A stretch of DNA of 62,373 nucleotides, filler included, from 15 parts of 15 records of this genome joined end to end with filler, not necessarily neighbours in it; one strand, 5' to 3'; positions 308 to 12,660 are shown, counted from the whole stretch's first letter. The notes: generated by a model not told the origin, from the letters alone. A program made the numbers and translations.

Positions 308-1064
308 CTACTTCTCCTTCTGATCGTCGGGAGTTGGAGATGGAGCTGGAGAATTTTCGTTGCTTGGTTTCACTTGGACAACTTGGGAACCCTCAGCCTG
401 TTGCTCAGCATTCTCTTTCACCTGGCAGGATGCAATGAAGCAGCTGAGATGTTCGGTGGCGTATGTGTGGTCCCCATGGTATGTGTGGCCCTCAGATTGC
501 TCCCAGCAGAAGCACAACAGAATTGTGTCGATAGCGGTCTCAAACACACCCAGGAACATGCATGAAATGCAGTATGCAAGCAGGCCACACACAATCAGTA
601 TGAGGATCTCCGAGGAGATGTCGTCATTCAAATCGCACATGAGCCAACACAAGGCTACAGTGCCTGCGGTGATGAAAAGTTTCCCCAGGAACATCAAATA
701 CATGCTGACCCAGTTGAGCACGGCCACTTGCGACAGGTTGTCCATGATGAAATTGAAGGCCTCGTATGCAGCAAGGCAGAAGGGCTTGCCTTTGACAGCG
801 GTTACGATGTAGGCGTTCCTAGAGATGAACTCCATTATCCGCTTGAAACATTCAAGACAGCACTGAATGTATGATGCTGCCCACCGCAGCCAGGCAACGT
901 CGTCCAGATACTGCGAGAGCCTCGTCTTCACTGAGGTTGTACTTGTCGTATTCATCCATATAGTAGAAATAGAGGTAGATGCCACCAGCAGCACACGCCG
1001 CTACACAAATCACTGAGAGAAATATTGAAGTCCAGACAAAGCACGCTGCACACAGCCTGCACAC
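308..1064 (-). pseudogene. Choline transporter-like (CTL/SLC44/Pns1) gene fragment, apparently internally deleted or frameshifted
   Basis: The C-terminal CTL motifs YIQCCLECFKRIMEFISRNAYIVTAVKGKPFCLAA, FLGKLFI and VFETAIDTILLCF lie in 308-925. An earlier-type TM segment (RLCAACFVWTSIFLSVICV...) lies at 930-1060 in a different frame, and the expected intervening helices are missing. Confidence 0.6.
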
Positions 1065-1533: not shown

Positions 1534-4068
1534 ATGTTTCGCTGCGTGGCCCGGCTGGCGGCCCAGCGGTCGACCCGACCTGGCAGCCCGGGCAGCATGC
1601 TCCAGCGCTGGATGAGCGCGTCGGTGGCCCGGGCCAGGCGGGCTGGGCTAGCCTGGGCAGGCGGGCGACATCAGCATGAGCCGTAACATCGGGATATCGG
1701 CGCACATCGACTCGGGTGCCGGGCCGGGCCGGGCTGGGCGAGCCGGCTGGCAGGCAAGACAACGCTGACTGAGCGGATCCTTTATTACACGGGCCGCATA
1801 GATGACATCCACGAGGCATCCCGGGGCGGGGCCCGGGGCGAAGGGCAGGCAGGTGCGCGGGAAGGACGGAGTGGGCGCCAAGATGGACTCGATGGACTTG
1901 GAGCGCGAGAAGGGGATCACCATCCAGGTGACCCAGGCCCGCCCCGCCCAGCCAGCCAGGCCAGAGCGCGGCCACCCACTGCACCTGGGGCGACTACTCG
2001 ATGAACATAATCGACACCCCTGGACACGTGGACTTCACCGTTGAGGTGGAGCGGGCACTCAGGGTGCTGGACGGGGCGGTGCTGGTGCTCTGCGGGGTCT
2101 CGGGCGTCCAGTCCCAGTCCATAACGGTCGACCGCCAGATGCGTCGGTACAATGTGCCGCGAATCGCGTTTATAAACAAGCTCGATCGGATGGGCGCCAA
2201 CCCGTCCAGAGTGCTCGGCCAGCTGCGGACCAAGCTCGGGCTGAACGCCGTCTTTGTCAACCTGGCGCCCAAGCTGGAGGCCGAGTTTGACGGAGTGATT
2301 GACCTGGTGTCTGAGCAGCTAGTCAGCTTTGAGGGCCCGAGTGGCGAGAAGGTGGTTCGCTCGCCGGTCCCAACGGACATGCAGGTGCCCGCGCCCACCC
2401 CGGGCCGGCTGAGCCGGGCAGGCGGAGGTGGCGGCGGCGCGGGCCGAGCTGGTTGAGCGGCTGGCGGACGTGGACGATGAGCTGGGTGAGATGTTCCTGA
2501 TGGAGGAGCAGCCTAGTGTTGAACAGCTCCAGTGAGCCACCCACCCGGCAGCCAGCCAGCCGCGGGCAGGGCGGCCATCCGGCGGGCCACGATCGCGCAG
2601 AGCTTCGTGCCGGTGCTGCTGGGGACGGCACTGAAGAACCAAGGCGTGCAGACACTGCTGGATGCGGTGAGGCCCGATGGTGAGCCTGTGGCCGAGTGAG
2701 TTTAGGTGATGTCTTACCTTCCGGCGCCCGACGAGGTGAAGAACTACGCGCTCGACCAGAAGAACGAGGAGGCCAAGGCGACTGGGGGGGGCGGCGGGCG
2801 GCGGCCGAATGCAAGGGCAGGTGGAGCTGGACTGCGGGAGCTCTTCGGATCCTCTGGTGGCGCTGGCATTCAAGCTAGAAGAGGGCAGGTTCGGGCAGCT
2901 CACCTACCTGCGGGTGTACCAAGGCGAGCTGGCCAAGGGGGATGTGGTGTACAACCAGACCAACGGCAAGAAGATCAAGGTGCCCAGGCTGGTCCGGATG
3001 CACTCGAATGAAATGACCGACATCGACTCCGTTGGACCCGGCGAGATCGTGGCGCTCTTCGGAGTCGAGTGCGCCTCGGGCGATACGTTCACCGACGGCA
3101 AGCTGCCGTACACGATGAGCTCGATGCACGTGCCCACCCCGGTGATCTCGCTCGCTGTGAAGCCGCTCGGGAAAGGCTCGGACACCAACTTCTCCAAGGC
3201 GCTCCAGCGGTTCATGAGGGAGGATCCGACATTTAGGGTGCACGTGGACCCGGACAGCAACGAAACGATCATCTCCGGTATGGGCGAGCTGCACCTGGAG
3301 GTGTACTGCGAGCGGATGAAGCGCGAGTACAAGTGCGAGGTGCAAGTCGGCCAGCCGCAGGTCAACTACCTCGAGACGATCACCAGCAAGGCCGAGTTCT
3401 CGTACATGCACAAGAAACAGTCGGGCGGGCAGGGCCAGTTTGGGAAGGTGGAGGGCTGGATCGAGCCTGTCGAGCTCAAGCAGCAAACCAACCAGTTTGA
3501 GAACCAGACTGTGGGCGGCTCGATCCCGCCCAACTTCATCCCAGCCTGCCAGAAGGGGTTCGAGGAGGCCGCCCTGCGCGGGTTCTTGATCGGGCACAAA
3601 GTGGTCGACTGCAAGATGGTGGTCAATGACGGAGCCGCGCACGCGGTCGACTCCTCGGAGCTTGCGTTCAACTTGGCCACCCGCGGAGCGTTCCGGCAAG
3701 CGTTCGAGAAGGCGGGGCCGCAGGTGCTAGAGCCGGTGATGAATCTGGAGGTGGCCGCGCCCACAGAGTTCCAAGGCACCGTGATCGGGCAAGTCAACCG
3801 GCGCAAGGGGATTGTGAACGAGACCGAGACCGAGCATGAGTACGTGACGGTCCGGGCGGCGGTCCCACTGAGCAACATGTTTGGGTACTCGACTGACCTG
3901 CGGTCGGTCACACAGGGCAAGGGCGAGTTCACCATGTGAGGCTCCTCGGGGCGGGCTGACTTGCGGGGCAGGGAGTACTCGCACCACGCGGCAGTCACGC
4001 GCGATGTGCAAGAAAAGCTGATCGCCGAGTACCTGAAGCGCAGGGCCGAGGAGAAGAATTCAAAGTAG
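1534..4068 (+). CDS. GFM1: Mitochondrial elongation factor G1, 730 aa, 9 introns
   Basis: Removing introns 1624-1660, 1716-1753, 1816-1852 (GC-AG), 1928-1964, 2385-2421, 2532-2569, 2667-2705, 2778-2820 (GC-AG) and 3936-3971 gives one open frame. It begins with an Arg-rich transit peptide [13 protein letters not shown] and contains [79 protein letters not shown] and [22 protein letters not shown]. Confidence 0.97.
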
Positions 4069-5991: not shown

Positions 5992-6091
5992 NNNNNNNNN
6001 NNNNNNNNNNNNNNNNNNNNNNNNNNNNNNNNNNNTTAATTAATTAANNNNNNNNNNNNNNNNNNNNNNNNNNNNNNNNNNNNNNNNNNNN
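5992..6091. other. Artificial contig spacer (44 N + TTAATTAATTAA + 44 N); first of 14
   Basis: Identical 100-nt spacers start at 5992, 10855, 14021, 17228, 20470, 23788, 27042, 32099, 35405, 41802, 45463, 50173, 53304 and 58413. The 12-mer places stops in all six frames, as expected of a concatenation linker. Confidence 0.98.
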
Positions 6092-6134
6092 ACGTTAATG
6101 TGCGCTCAAATTTATGAATATTATTGGCAGCTGA

Positions 6135-6978
6135 TCAGCAGCTAGGCACAACGCCCTGAGACTGGATTGTCTTTGTCGCCCGCCAAACTACACGGCGGCA
6201 GCCACTTGTGCTGCCGTCATCACAATCAAAATGTACATCCGCGCTCAGCAGCGCCTGCGACCGCAAGCTCTCAGTGAAGGCAGCACAGCGGCTGGCACTT
6301 TGAAAGAGCCTTTCGAGGCGTCATAGGCTAAAAGGTACGCGACCGAACTCTCGGCTGTGTTAGATAGAGAGACACTCAACTGCCAGCTGCATTAGCGCCG
6401 GGCTGGGGTCCGCTCGGTACCGACTGATCATAGAGCACGTCGCCGCTGAGCATCGTGTCGTTCTGCAGCGCGCTACCGCTCCGGATCTGCTCCGGGAACT
6501 GCGCACAGTTGGCTGCCCGGCCAGAGGTGGGCAGCCACCCAGAGCGTGGACTTGGGATCCAAATCGGAAGCGTAGTGCACTTGGAACGCGATGTACCGGA
6601 TGACCTGCTTCGTACCAGCCAACGGCACTTTGAGCTTGACCTGCAGCTGCAGCCCAGCGGTAACGACAACGGCTGCTGGGCGGGGCACCGTCATGTTGAG
6701 CGCGATGGTGGGCGCCACGGTGCCCTGATACTTGGTGACCGAGAGGCAGGTGGCCACAGCCGAGTCCACGTCCAAATTGGGCGCCCCGAACACCGAACGG
6801 TTCAGAAAGGCAGCCACCCCTGCATAGGCTCGCTCGGGCTGGAGGTGCTACCCACCGAGGACTAAGGCGGTGACGAGCACGAAGATCGGGACGCTGGCGT
6901 AGGCCGAGCGTTGCTCCTACCAGGCACTTCTGAGAGCGCGGCCCGCGGCCGAGAACGCACCGCAGCGGCGAAGGCCAT
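6135..6978 (-). CDS. Unknown ~195-aa protein with an N-terminal hydrophobic anchor, 6 mini-introns
   Basis: Removing six GT-AG introns of 36-48 nt gives an open frame MAFAAA-EQRSAYASVPIFVLVTALVLGVAAFLNRSVFG...GVVPSC-stop. Confidence 0.6.
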
Positions 6979-7121
6979 CCCCCGGACCTGTGGAGGGGAG
7001 CAGCCGCGCCTCTGCTGGCTGCTTTCCTTGTGGTAGATCCGTTGGCCGCGCAACGGAATCACAAGGGCGTTGACGTTGGCAACGCAGTGCAACCACGCGG
7101 CAAGCCCCGGGCTCTCTCTAG

Positions 7122-10100
7122 ATGCCGTCTCAGGAGCGGCAAGCCGAGGTGTGTGAGCGGGGAGGGGCCCTGCCGAAAGGCGTGGCGTCCAGGAGCTTGT
7201 CGCGGCCACCTTGCCCTTCGCCAAAGGCTCAGATGTGGCGCGGCACGGCCAGGTGGACCGGCCCTGCCAGTACCGACTGAACCAGCCGGCAGGTGAACGA
7301 AGCCGCCAGGGACAAGCTGGTGCGCGCTGTCGGGTCGTGGGGGTGGGGGGTTGAACCCCGGGGCAGATCGAGTTTGTGATCCGGTGCAACGAGGACGGCG
7401 GCAAGCGCGTGATAGATGAACTCAAACCGCTGATCATGGGGGCGAGCACCAGGCCGGTCGCATCAATGGCGGCGCTCAAAATCTTGGACGACTGCGCGCA
7501 GCATGGTGGACTACCGTTCCGGGGCAAATTCATGGTTGACAAGTGGGCGAAACGCGTAGAAGAGGTGAAGCCGTTTGCGGTGCGGGGAGCCAACCGGGCG
7601 GGCAGGTCATTCTGAAATCGCATCACCAAGAGGCGCGGAGCAAGGCCGGCGCGTGCGATAAGGTCGGGGCAGGTGCGAAAAACCTTCTGTAACGTGCTGG
7701 TGGGCTGGCAAGCGATGATGGAGTCTACCAACGGGTGGGATTTCGATTCCAATAGAGACAGCACACCCATGAGCACGTCGATTAAAAAGCTGGAGAAGGC
7801 CGGGATCCCGGTGCGCGGCGGGGGAGCGTCTCTCGCCGATCAGTCAAACCTGATGTTCAGTGGGTCCATGTACAACCGTGGTCAGATCCAAGACTCGGGT
7901 GTGCGGCACGGCCGCTATCAAGTCGACGAAGAATACAACGCCGACACGCTAGCCCAGGACGACGCTGCATTCGGGATTGCCCCGGAGGGCGACGAGGCGT
8001 ACGCCTGGGTCCTGCACAACCAGCATGAAGCAGACATGCCCTCGATTGATATTGAGCAGACTCAGGATGACGAGGAATTTGCCAGGGCGCTCCAGGTGCC
8101 GCCATCAGTTGCTGCCCACCGTGGCCCGATTGCTGTGTCTGTGCAGGCTCAGTTTGACAGCGTCCAGAACTCACCGACGGGGCCGGACCTGCCTTCTGAC
8201 CAGGACCTGGAAGACCTGCTGAGCGGCCCAATGCCCGCCACAGTCGCTGGTGAGCCAGTTGCAGAAGAGCCCTCAGGGCGACCAAGCGCGGCCCCACGGA
8301 GTCAGGCCAGCCCATTCGCCTCGGCGCAGCCATCTCGGCGGCAACAACCATCCCAGCAGCAGTCGGCTGGCCAAGATTCTCAGTTGTCCGAGGCGATGGC
8401 TGCCTCCGTACGCGAGCACGGGCAACAGCAGGCCCGGCGGCGAGGCATGTCCCAAGAAGACGTGCAGCGGGACGAGGAGGCAAAGCTTGCGGAGGTGAGC
8501 TGGCCTGCTGTGCACTAGTGAATTTCCGACAGGCCATTCGGCTCTCGATTCAAGAAGAGGAGCGGCGGAAGGGCGAGAAGCAGCGGGAGGACATGGACCT
8601 GGAGCTGGCGCTATTCCGCTCTGTGGTGTGTGCTGCTCAGAGTCAAGTTGTCTCACTGCAAGTGTGCGCAGAGCGACGGCGTGCCTCATGAGCTGCTGGC
8701 CTCAATCAACGTGCTCAAAGAGCTCGGATTCTCACACGAGGGCGCGGCGGTCGAATGTCTTCAGGCTTCCGGGGGGGACCTTGAGCAAGCGATCAACATG
8801 CTGATTGCTCGTGCCAACGACCCTGGTGCAATTTCCTGATGGGTTGGCCCTGAGGTTGTGCTGTGCAGCTTATCAGGGTCAGGGAGGTGGCCAGGGTGGA
8901 TACCCTGGTCCCGGCCCGGGTGGAGCCTATGCGCAACCGCAGGGCGACTACGCTGCGGGCCAGGGCGGATACCCTGGCGCTGGTCCGGGCGGAGTAGCTG
9001 TTGTACCAGTTCCGATGGGGCAGCAGGCTTCTGCAGCTCCCCAGGAAGAGATGAGCGATTTTGACAAGAAACGAGCTGCAAAGAAAGCTGCTGAAGCTAA
9101 AGCCGCCGCTGATCAGAAGGTGGCTGTCTGTTTGGCTGGCTGGCGGGTGACTGTGCACTTTGAAGGCCAAACTGAAGCCTATGAAGGACATGGTGAGTGA
9201 GCTGAAAGAGAGGCTTGGCAGTAGGGATGGCAACAAGACTCATGCCAGCACGACAGACTTCAACCGGCAGTTTGTGCCCGCGGGCCCCAAAGACAGCCAG
9301 GCCTCTGCTCTTTGTGCGCCTGTCCCTATTGGGCCAGGAGCCACGGCCCTGCCAGAAGGATTTGTGCCCCGTGGTGGTGGCAAAGGCAAGGGCAAAGGAG
9401 GCAAAGGAGGGCCACCTGTGCGTGGCAAGGGTGGCGGGCCGCTCCAGCAGGGTGGGAATGGCATCACTCGGGATGCAAGCATCCTGGCCATGATGCGGCA
9501 GCTGCAAGGCAAGAAGGTTGGCGGAGGAGGTGTGCGGCGGGAGGGTGGCGGTGGGAGGGGTGACGCGGACCCTGAGCTCAACATGAACGACGAGCTCAAG
9601 GGTAAATCCAAGTTCTTTGCTCAGGTCAGTTTTGAAGTATTGGTATGGAACGTGAGCCTCGCTGGGACAGGTACAGGAGGACATTGAAAAGTATGGCCCA
9701 CGCCTGCAGGCTCTGGCTCAGGAGATCATGCAATTTGAGGGGTATGATCATGACTCGATCGTCAAGATGTGGCAAAGAGTGGAGAAAGAGATCGAGCCAC
9801 TTGGGGAGCGTGAGGGCGAGGTGCTCAAGGGAATACAAGGCTGGCCACACAGCAAGGTGGAAGTGATGAATATCGCCATCAAGCGGCATGTGGGGCTGAA
9901 GGAGCTGCTTGACAAAATCCGCCGGTGATCTGCCCAGCAGGCCTGTCTGAGCACGGGGCGGCAGCTGGCCTCACGCAGAGATGGAGGCGCCGGCCGAGTT
10001 GGTGCAGCTGGGCAAGGCAATGGATGCGATCATGAATAGGCTCGAGCCCCTCAAACGCAACAGGTGCAGCTGGAGGTAGACCTCGCCTGAGCTGCTGGTG

Positions 10101-10478
10101 CCAGGGAAGCTGACAAGGCCAAATTTGAGAACGCTAACATTGGCTTTGATACCACTCTGGTCAACAAGGTTGGACAATCAACGGTCAGTGAGCCTCATGA
10201 CGACCTGCTTATTGAAAGGATTTTTGTATTAGGTCATTCTCGCTCGCCGGGCCTGCACGCTTGCGCTGGCTTTGGTTGACAGATGGGGAAAGCAGAATGT
10301 GGGCGTGGTCCAGATGCCGCACTTTGTCAGCAAATTGTTGATCGACGCGGCACAGTTTTCTTTCCGAGTGTACCAATGTGCCGGTGGGTTTGACAAGGAG
10401 ACCAAGGCCTTGTTCACCAATGTCAACGAGTGCATCCAAAATGAAAACAAGCGCAAGGAGGCCGCCGGTGGGCAATAG
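7122..10478 (+). CDS. VHS-UIM(3-4)-UBA-Gly-rich-CHUP1 C-terminal-like fusion protein, 914 aa, 14 introns
   Basis: Introns: 7149-7192, 7253-7292, 7320-7366, 7565-7605, 7633-7672 (GC), 8096-8146, 8495-8532, 8626-8671, 8826-8868, 9120-9165, 9625-9670, 9925-9964, 10064-10104, 10184-10232. Removing them leaves 2745 nt in one frame. VHS: ALKILDDCAQHGGLPF...VRKTFCNVLVGW. UIMs: DDEEFARALQ, SQLSEAMAAS, EEAKLAEAIRLS, DMDLELALFRS. UBA: LKELGFSHEGAAVECLQASGGDLEQAINML. CHUP1-like end: FSFRVYQCAGGFDKET. Confidence 0.8.
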
Positions 10479-10983
10479 TGTGCGTAGCAACAATGCGCTC
10501 TTGGGTATTCGGTACTCGGCGCCCTACTCGGCACCCTGAGCGTCTTGCGAGTCTTGAGATTCAATTGGGTACATGATTGTACATGTACGACGATCACATG
10601 CAAGGAATTAGTGAGTTTTAGATCTATAGTAAAAAACTTCAAGAAAGACCATACATTACTTGTGGCCACACTGATGGGGCATCATATACCGAGTCTGCCC
10701 GCCAGAAAGTGCCGTAACGGTTATTATCGTCCCAATTGCAGTCTCTCGTTCGTACAGGAAGGAAGGTTCGCGAAGAGACGCACCTGTCGAGGTGGTTGCG
10801 AGCTGCGAGCAGCAGTGACGCGCACAGTCGGCACCTAGCACACGTGCTGGAATCNNNNNNNNNNNNNNNNNNNNNNNNNNNNNNNNNNNNNNNNNNNNTT
10901 AATTAATTAANNNNNNNNNNNNNNNNNNNNNNNNNNNNNNNNNNNNNNNNNNNNGGGGGGGGGGGGGGGGGGGGGGGGGGAGG

Positions 10984-12660
<1,677 letters not shown>

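Follow-up and report, generated by a model that had tools for sequence, protein, structure and literature searches.

CHUP1 acts on the chloroplast envelope, where it builds short actin filaments that move and anchor the chloroplast, and it has been described as a fourth class of actin nucleators, specific to plants. Described here is a gene at positions 7122 to 10478 (plus strand) of a 62,373-nucleotide (nt) stretch of DNA, the whole of which is called the window. Its predicted product is almost certainly encoded by one gene and has a two-module architecture, in which a VHS-like domain, ubiquitin-interacting motifs (UIMs), a ubiquitin-associated (UBA) domain and a linker are fused to a domain of the CHUP1 C-terminal type (CHUP1-C).

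In the available text of the preprint on its structure, plant CHUP1-C is reported to polymerise actin with profilin and to sever, and CHUP1-C constructs that lack the polyproline tract do not support profilin-actin polymerisation (bioRxiv 10.1101/2020.01.14.905984). Phe958 was found to be essential for dimerisation and function, Arg820 was also essential and was proposed to contact actin, and an extension (residues 716-755) was present in the dimeric crystal form (bioRxiv 10.1101/2020.01.14.905984). The resemblance of CHUP1 to the formin FH2 domain is described there as a partial three-helix-bundle likeness, without sequence similarity. The same text names "CHUC" genes, which encode the C-terminal half of CHUP1 only, in Coccomyxa, Micromonas, Guillardia and land plants; the hosts it reports are all photosynthetic, it describes no VHS, UIM or UBA partner, and the function of CHUC is called unresolved by the naming authors (bioRxiv 10.1101/2020.01.14.905984). 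In Arabidopsis, the CHUP1-type C-terminal region is shared by IPGA1, IPGAL1 and IPGAL2, as far as the available text goes (PMC6793458); these are plant proteins with N-terminal parts other than that of the window protein.

On the side of the ubiquitin-binding half, Hrs/Vps27, STAM/Hse1, TOM1 and the GGAs likewise have ubiquitin-binding motifs downstream of a VHS-type domain at the N-terminus. The window protein differs from these adaptors in having no detected FYVE, SH3, GAT or GAE domain and a VHS match below the Pfam cut-off. To our knowledge, neither a UBA domain nor a CHUP1-C tail is part of the Hrs, STAM, TOM1 or GGA families. Sla2/Hip1R combines an ANTH domain with the C-terminal actin-binding THATCH domain. 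Its design is similar to that of the window protein, with a helical N-terminus of the ENTH/ANTH/VHS kind, a long linker and a C-terminal cytoskeleton binder; the C-terminal domain is unrelated, however, and ubiquitin motifs are missing, so that the resemblance is one of design only.

No publication joining CHUP1 and VHS was found in the open literature (subscription papers and supplements lay outside the search), in agreement with the earlier statement, made from the sequence alone, that no such architecture was known. Likewise, no protist CHUP1 homologue of this kind was found among the papers listed, as judged by their titles and the beginnings of their abstracts, and a literature search for CHUC with CHUP1 returned one preprint (bioRxiv 10.1101/2020.01.14.905984) and one unrelated paper. 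A CHUP1-C domain outside land plants is not new in itself, given the three algae of the available preprint text; what appear to be new are the fusion partner and the non-photosynthetic host. The domain fusion is real and conserved, and apparently undescribed.

Gene model and conservation of the fusion

No long open reading frame (ORF) covers 7122-10478 on the plus strand, which is interrupted by short GT..AG units. Removal of 14 introns of 38-51 nt (GT..AG in 13 cases, GC..AG in one, 7633-7672) yielded a single frame of 917 codons, from the ATG at 7122 to the TAG at 10476-10478. The first-pass annotation had proposed 14 mini-introns and one frame of 914 residues; both the introns and the frame were recovered, the difference in length is trivial, and the five window peptides quoted with that proposal all occur in the spliced model. 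The final model was guided by RNA joints and by the ORFs of relatives; it replaced a minimal-intron search that gave open frames with wrong introns. Codon usage trained on long ORFs had no discriminating power and was left out of the model.

Evidence for the fusion came from a scan of metagenome contigs with two peptide patterns derived from the C-terminal domain, in which 217 stretches matched and seven were confirmed. In each of three of the seven (L001, L002 and L003; 3.0-3.1 kb), a single ORF runs without interruption, its length being 934, 937 and 915 amino acids (aa), respectively. These three contigs have short flanks resembling untranslated regions (UTRs) and none of the introns of the window gene, and are most simply explained as transcript assemblies. 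The gene model is collinear with the three ORFs from a common N-terminal Met-Pro-Ser to the C-terminus, and is identical to L001 at 438 of 871 aligned positions (about 50%). With the database size set to 1e9, the N-terminal 455 aa of the model matched these ORFs at E 1.8e-71, and the C-terminal 277 aa matched the same ORFs at E ~2e-115, so that the co-occurrence of the two halves, which had been suggested as a check, was found in single ORFs of three metagenome contigs. All 14 splice junctions are supported by the collinear alignment. At 12 of them no gap lies within 3 residues, and the two with nearby gaps are both located in low-complexity linkers, one of these being confirmed by RNA. The alignment thereby supports a micro-exon, the GC..AG intron, the removal of the in-frame 51-nt intron 8096-8146, and a continuous frame from the UBA domain through the linker into the CHUP1-like domain. 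A word-index protein search with L001 residues 1-185 gave 532 candidates, none of which scored (weak evidence).

Parts of the stretch are contained in 18 marine metatranscriptome RNA runs, and the contigs of four of these were compared with the gene. Seven of the 14 introns were bridged, namely 8626-8671, 9120-9165, 9625-9670, 9925-9964, 10064-10104 and 10184-10232, and, weakly, 7633-7672 (one contig, with a 26-nt side); the contigs ran unbroken over 9162-9402, 9668-9923 and 10232-10596. In the same four runs, 7122-7600, 8357-8562 and 8779-8995 had no cover, and the fusion intron, 8826-8868, therefore has no direct RNA bridging. Of the two introns singled out earlier for an RNA check, 9120-9165 was thus bridged in two studies, whereas 8826-8868 lies in uncovered sequence. 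The latter was the top-ranked single-intron solution for 8672-9119, with two other single-intron solutions listed, and is supported by the continuous ORFs across the same point in L001, L002 and L003. The elements of the gene model are as follows (X labels mark the RNA data from which the contigs come).

7122-10478, plus strand: whole coding region, 15 exons, 14 introns, 917 codons plus stop
7149-7192, plus strand: intron 1, 44 nt, GT..AG; frame continuity and ungapped alignment to L001-L003; no RNA cover
7253-7292, plus strand: intron 2, 40 nt, GT..AG; frame and relatives' alignment; no RNA cover
7329-7366, plus strand: intron 3, 38 nt, GT..AG; frame and relatives' alignment; no RNA cover
7565-7605, plus strand: intron 4, 41 nt, GT..AG; frame and relatives' alignment; bridged by no RNA contig
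7606-7632, plus strand: micro-exon, 27 nt, 9 codons, within the VHS-like domain; 9 matching columns in L001-L003; its last 26 nt joined to 7673 onward in one X5 RNA contig
7633-7672, plus strand: intron 5, 40 nt, GC..AG; RNA joint 7630>7671 with 3 shiftable letters; ungapped against the relatives
8096-8146, plus strand: intron 6, 51 nt, in frame if retained; no RNA cover; the 17 residues that retention would add are missing in L001-L003
8495-8532, plus strand: intron 7, 38 nt, splits UIM 3; no RNA cover; splicing rebuilds a UIM conserved in L001-L003
8626-8671, plus strand: intron 8, 46 nt, splits UIM 4; RNA joint in X2 with a 62-nt side; relatives' alignment
8826-8868, plus strand: intron 9 (fusion intron), 43 nt, GT..AG; its removal eliminates the TGA at 8837-8839 and connects the linker to the UBA exon
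9120-9165, plus strand: intron 10, 46 nt; RNA joints in X2 and X6
9625-9670, plus strand: intron 11, 46 nt; RNA joint in X1; relatives' alignment
9925-9964, plus strand: intron 12, 40 nt; RNA joints in X1 and X2; junction agrees with the Telonema subtile transcript P0010
10064-10104, plus strand: intron 13, 41 nt; RNA joint in X2; P0010 alignment
10184-10232, plus strand: intron 14, 49 nt; RNA joints in X1 and X2; P0010 alignment
10479-10596, plus strand: 3' UTR, at least 118 nt; an X5 RNA contig spans 10266-10596

A C-terminal domain homologous to CHUP1

The second module of the protein is the best-conserved part of the gene, with 69% identity between the window and L001, compared with 32-46% elsewhere.

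9460-10439, plus strand: CHUP1-C-type (CHUC / IPGAL1_C-like) domain, aa 638 to about 905, including the N-terminal helix

It is established, by sequence as well as by fold, that the C-terminal ~270 aa are a true homologue of Arabidopsis CHUP1 716-982, as the first-pass annotation had proposed; the CHUP1 alignment blocks it gave agree with the sequence of chain 8wag. When the last exon alone was compared with the PDB, the sole matches were 8waf and 8wag (E 0.014); exon 9671-9924 alone gave no meaningful PDB match. A profile of relatives and five window exons (A1) matched 8waf at E 1.4e-18, with the next PDB match at E 0.67, and a larger profile that also included window exons (A3) matched 8wag at E 1e-29 over chain positions 8-267, which correspond to the whole CHUP1 716-982 fragment with its N-terminal helix. 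A library protein that covers the whole domain, P0004, matched 8wag at E 5.2e-14.

A full-library search with the last exon returned nine matches at E<=0.001 among 1.84 billion representatives. The domain was present in six of the seven matches examined (P0001-P0004, P0008 and P0009); the other, P0006, is a repeat protein whose match looks spurious. P0001 and its longer isoform P0010 represent a 5'-truncated Telonema subtile transcript (EukProt) that is 73% identical. Word-index protein searches gave 64 candidates for exon 9671-9924 and 4158 for P0004, none of which scored (weak evidence).

The evidence on the fold was obtained from L001, whose domain shares 69% identity with that of the window; its AlphaFold model has a predicted local distance difference test score (pLDDT) of ~90 over residues 70-290. 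In Foldseek, the best match of this L001 model was 8waf (E 2.3e-8, TMt 0.82), and the runner-up had an E-value of 0.09. A scan of 48,161 chains that was independent of Foldseek found 8wag with a Z-score of 18.6 (root-mean-square deviation 2.6 Å over 213 residues), followed by a chain at 8.6; the structural alignment with 8wag has about 24% identity. The structure and profile comparisons that had been called for as a check on the C-terminus thus both led to CHUP1. In the ESM Atlas, the cluster nearest to the domain is named "IPGAL1-like C-terminal domain" (0.93) and carries the label IPGAL1_C (PF26700), and the clusters around the domain are labelled IPGAL1_C and CHUP1; PF26700 is an Atlas label here and serves as a lead. 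No FH2 chain occurred among the fold matches listed by Foldseek or by the second scan, and Pfam gave no FH2 match. A homodimer prediction for the L001 C-terminal domain scored 0.14 against a mark of 0.32 and speaks neither way.

The likeness to Arabidopsis thaliana CHUP1 (8wag, 8waf) extends over the whole of residues 716-982, with both the N-terminal helix and the conserved motif at the C-terminus. CHUP1 residues were mapped by chain offsets that place Arg at 820 and Phe at 958. By this mapping, Phe occupies position 958 in the window and L001-L003 as well as in Telonema, P0004, P0009 and P0014, and the N-terminal helix corresponding to CHUP1 716-755 is also matched in the profile alignment. 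As far as CHUP1 is described in the available text, the window protein differs from it in having neither the N-terminal hydrophobic chloroplast anchor, nor the coiled-coil/F-actin-binding region, nor the polyproline tract; its upstream part consists of the VHS-like, UIM, UBA and Gly/Lys-rich segments. It is not a full-length CHUP1 orthologue, since the anchor, the coiled coil, the F-actin-binding region and the polyproline tract are all missing from it.

A second, more divergent group of CHUP1-C-type sequences was also observed (L004, positions 1-1500, and L005, L006 and L007), which are 35-41% identical to the Telonema domain. L004 has a 5'-open ORF of 499 aa and retains the Gly/Lys-rich tract and the N-terminal helix; its upstream part is different, rich in Gln, Pro and Ser, with no visible UBA domain. 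Three ENA proteins (P0002, P0008 and P0011) are predictions from genomic contigs of close relatives, in which the last CHUC exon runs into a MYND-type Cys-rich segment. This extension is probably no real fusion, and reflects read-through of an intron or into a neighbouring gene by a prokaryote-style gene caller.

The predicted ubiquitin-binding half, the linker and the genomic setting

The N-terminal half carries several predicted ubiquitin-binding elements in series, as in endosomal sorting adaptors, and is followed by the linker, some 180 residues of low-complexity and helical sequence that join it to the CHUP1-C-type domain.

7122-7729, plus strand: VHS-like domain, aa 1-135, beginning at residue 1; five exons and the start of exon 6
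8066-8161, plus strand: UIM-like motif 1, aa 248-262, spans intron 6; degenerate, recognised by eye, conserved in relatives, fails the strict pattern
8375-8416, plus strand: UIM motif 2, aa 334-347; passes the strict pattern in the window but not in relatives, where the Ala position is Thr
8474-8559, plus strand: UIM motif 3, aa 367-382, spans intron 7; strict in the window, L001, L002 and L003
8587-8677, plus strand: UIM motif 4, aa 392-406, spans intron 8; strict in the window, L001 and L002, aligned in L003
8681-8809, plus strand: UBA domain, aa 408-450, Pfam PF00627
8825-8993, plus strand: Gly/Tyr/Pro-rich low-complexity linker, aa 456-497, by composition
9054-9219, plus strand: Lys/Ala/Glu-rich segment, probably helical, aa 518-557, spans intron 10; second half conserved
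9367-9441, plus strand: Gly/Lys-rich basic tract, aa 607-631, at the position of the CHUP1 polyproline tract

Four independent lines, each weak, agree on a VHS-like N-terminal domain, an assignment that is likely to be correct. The Pfam VHS family (PF00790) matched the window exon 7367-7564 with 16.1 bits (E 0.01); for L001 and L003 the scores were 20.7 and 21.1 bits (E 3-4e-4). The cut-off of the family is 29.8 bits. All ten of the top ten Foldseek matches of the N-terminal model are VHS or ENTH-VHS chains (GGA3, Hrs, STAM1/2, GGA1 and At3g16270), at E 0.012-0.12 and none at E<=0.001. A profile search of the PDB with the N-terminal domain gave four weak matches, two of which were the VHS domains of STAM2 (E 0.67) and TOM1 (E 1.1), both collinear; the VHS exon alone gave no meaningful PDB match. 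In the ESM Atlas, 27 of the 30 nearest clusters are VHS. Between this domain and the first UIM, a conserved island was noticed at ~7900-8030 (aa about 205-235), within a poorly conserved stretch; it consists of acidic residues followed by an Ala-Trp-x-Leu-His-Asn-Gln-like core.

The strict UIM pattern was defined as an acidic run followed by hydrophobic-x-x-Ala-x-x-x-Ser-x-x-acidic. It occurs three times in the window, twice each in L001 and L002, and once in L003; these are raw counts. No Pfam UIM match was found even at E up to 10, so the two conserved UIMs are predicted from motif and conservation. The earlier count of three to four UIMs is borne out in the window by three strict motifs and one degenerate motif, although only two are conserved in the relatives. 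The UBA domain was detected by Pfam PF00627 with 23.9 bits (E 3.7e-5), above the cut-off of 22.4 bits (window 8534-8836), and in L001 and L003 it appears as a weak UBA_7 match (E 0.018-0.028). The proposed order of VHS, UIMs, UBA, linker and CHUP1-C accordingly holds, with the UBA domain above the cut-off, the VHS domain below it and the UIMs at the level of motifs.

Pfam scans of L001 and L003 at E up to 1 found no FYVE, SH3, GAT, GAE or lipid-binding domain, divergent versions of which are possible, and scans of the window exons likewise gave no FYVE, SH3 or GAT. Because FYVE, SH3 and GAT were not seen, the protein, as judged from its predicted domains, is not a member of ESCRT-0, TOM1 or GGA proper. 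The earlier label "ESCRT-0-like" is therefore loose; it fits the VHS-like domain and the ubiquitin motifs, but not the missing FYVE, SH3 and GAT domains.

After the UBA domain, the linker is Gly/Tyr/Pro-rich in the window and takes the form of a Gly-Pro-Gly-Leu repeat of variable length in L001-L003, so that its composition is kept and its sequence is not. A reading of the Gly/Tyr/Pro segment as an LC3-interacting region or an ALG-2-binding site was dropped, since the relatives have Gly/Pro/Leu repeats without Tyr. The Gly/Lys-rich tract is conserved in L001-L003 and in the divergent L004.

The nearest named relative of the gene is that of Telonema subtile (phylum Telonemia), a plastid-less predator. 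The host, a marine protist, is probably a telonemid, an assignment drawn from the similarity of one gene. The window consists of ~15 contigs of 3-6 kb each, separated by 14 identical joining segments made up of 44 N, TTAATTAATTAA and 44 N (for example at 5992-6091 and 10855-10954, and at 12 further places), and the contig bearing the fusion gene is window 6092-10854. Gene order across the joints is meaningless, because the window was joined from separate contigs. A scan within contig 6092-10854 found no Pfam domain in the ORFs flanking the fusion gene. Other contigs of the window carry an elongation factor G-like gene (1932-3939, plus strand; Pfam EFG_III, EFG_IV and EFG_C), a choline-transporter-like gene (308-1000, minus strand) and an AAA ATPase fragment (11816-12340, plus strand); all three are apparently split by introns, and they are not proven neighbours of the fusion gene.

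Possible role of the fusion and its alternatives

By analogy with the systems described above, the protein may be a ubiquitin-docked adaptor whose CHUP1-C-type tail organises the cytoskeleton, a reading to which we give an even chance. Through avidity, the front half would attach to ubiquitin-bearing membrane cargo of endosomes or phagosomes, and the tail would then organise the cytoskeleton at the cargo site, most likely actin by analogy with CHUP1. The design of CHUP1, an organelle-targeting module followed by a CHUP1-C tail, would thus be kept, but the chloroplast anchor would be replaced by the recognition of ubiquitin. Taken separately, cytoskeletal coupling of any kind is as probable as its opposite.

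Several observations weigh against this reading. The VHS-like domain lies below the Pfam cut-off, and the N-terminal model, although all-helical, is of low confidence (mean pLDDT 52, from a 5-row alignment). The whole-protein Pfam scans and the fold models were made from the relative L001 and not from the spliced protein of the window itself. No domain was detected that would place the protein on a particular membrane (FYVE, GAT, SH3 or lipid-binding), and RNA cover is missing at 8779-8995, around the point of fusion. In the Arg820 column, the window and L001-L003 have Gly, Telonema has Ile and P0004 has His; within alignment A1, Arg is found there only in P0009 and P0014, which are members of the divergent group. 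Two residues upstream of this column the window does carry an Arg, and a local shift is possible. There is no proline run before the domain, its place being taken by the Gly/Lys-rich tract. Finally, IPGA1, the plant relative that shares the CHUP1 C-terminal region, binds microtubules, according to the available text (PMC6793458). Because the polyproline tract and Arg820 are not kept and IPGA1 is microtubule-associated, the earlier term "actin polymerase" is to be taken as hypothetical: the homology to CHUP1-C stands, the activity is an extrapolation, and actin polymerisation by the window protein itself seems rather doubtful.

These losses bear on a different reading of the same fusion, in which the tail would bind microtubules, like IPGA1, and would tether ubiquitin-marked vesicles or cargo without nucleating actin. 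The shared C-terminal region of IPGA1, the top ESM Atlas cluster with its IPGAL1-like name, and the missing polyproline tract and Arg820 are all consistent with this, and the conserved Gly/Lys-rich basic tract could bind acidic tubulin tails. However, the available text on IPGA1 does not state which of its parts binds microtubules (PMC6793458), and CHUP1-C, the sole member reported as solved and assayed, acts on actin (bioRxiv 10.1101/2020.01.14.905984). The best match in structure and in sequence is, moreover, CHUP1 itself, and a microtubule tether is considered unlikely.

Equally unlikely is a tail that serves as a helical dimerisation or scaffold module in a receptor that is soluble and binds ubiquitin multivalently, such as a shuttle or an aggregate/autophagy receptor, and that would not itself act on the cytoskeleton directly. 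Combinations of UIM and UBA also occur in soluble ubiquitin receptors, no membrane-targeting domain was found beyond the VHS-like one, and the dimerisation position Phe958 is kept where the actin-contact position Arg820 is not. Against a soluble receptor of this kind, the tail is the best-conserved domain of the protein (69% against 32-46%), and its conservation spans the whole domain beyond the dimer contacts, which suggests more than a spacer.

It is very improbable that the locus holds two genes, the first encoding a VHS-UIM-UBA adaptor that stops at TGA 8837-8839 and the second a separate CHUC protein starting from the ATG near 9013: a C-terminal UBA domain is a common protein end, RNA contigs of four runs leave 8779-8995 uncovered, and CHUC-only genes are reported in algae, but UBA, linker and CHUC lie within single uninterrupted ORFs in L001, L002 and L003, from 8869 on the frame stays open and reaches its first in-frame ATG only at about 9013, an X6 RNA contig begins at 8996, upstream of that ATG, the 43-nt GT..AG intron 8826-8868 falls within the 38-51 nt range of the other 13, the GC content over 8840-9014 (0.67) is coding-like (0.60 in the coding region) and unlike the 3' flank (0.45 over 10479-10900), and a 3' UTR of the known length (at least 118 nt) has no room here between two genes.

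The fusion hints that a domain supposed to be plant-specific also works on ubiquitin-marked membranes. Telonema, the nearest named relative, lacks a chloroplast that could be moved. Gene fusions that are conserved classically point to a functional link. The conserved joining to ubiquitin-binding elements here leads to a testable hypothesis, that CHUC domains outside plants act on ubiquitin-marked endomembranes. The absence of two features that are needed for the actin activity of CHUP1 suggests that the activity of the family may be broader than actin. A coupling of this kind would provide a new route from ubiquitin sorting to the cytoskeleton in a deep-branching eukaryotic group, the telonemids, for which we know of no described ESCRT-0. 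It is also conceivable, at odds slightly longer than those of the microtubule and soluble-receptor readings, that the CHUP1-C-type domain is an older, general assembler of cytoskeleton for the positioning of organelles, with its target set by the module to which it is fused. In that case, filaments built on the spot would push or anchor the ubiquitin-tagged endosomes or phagosomes of telonemid-like predators, through a ubiquitin-aimed nucleator that would need no formin, Arp2/3 or WASH intermediary, and plant CHUP1 would have arisen later, when this machinery was redirected to the chloroplast envelope.

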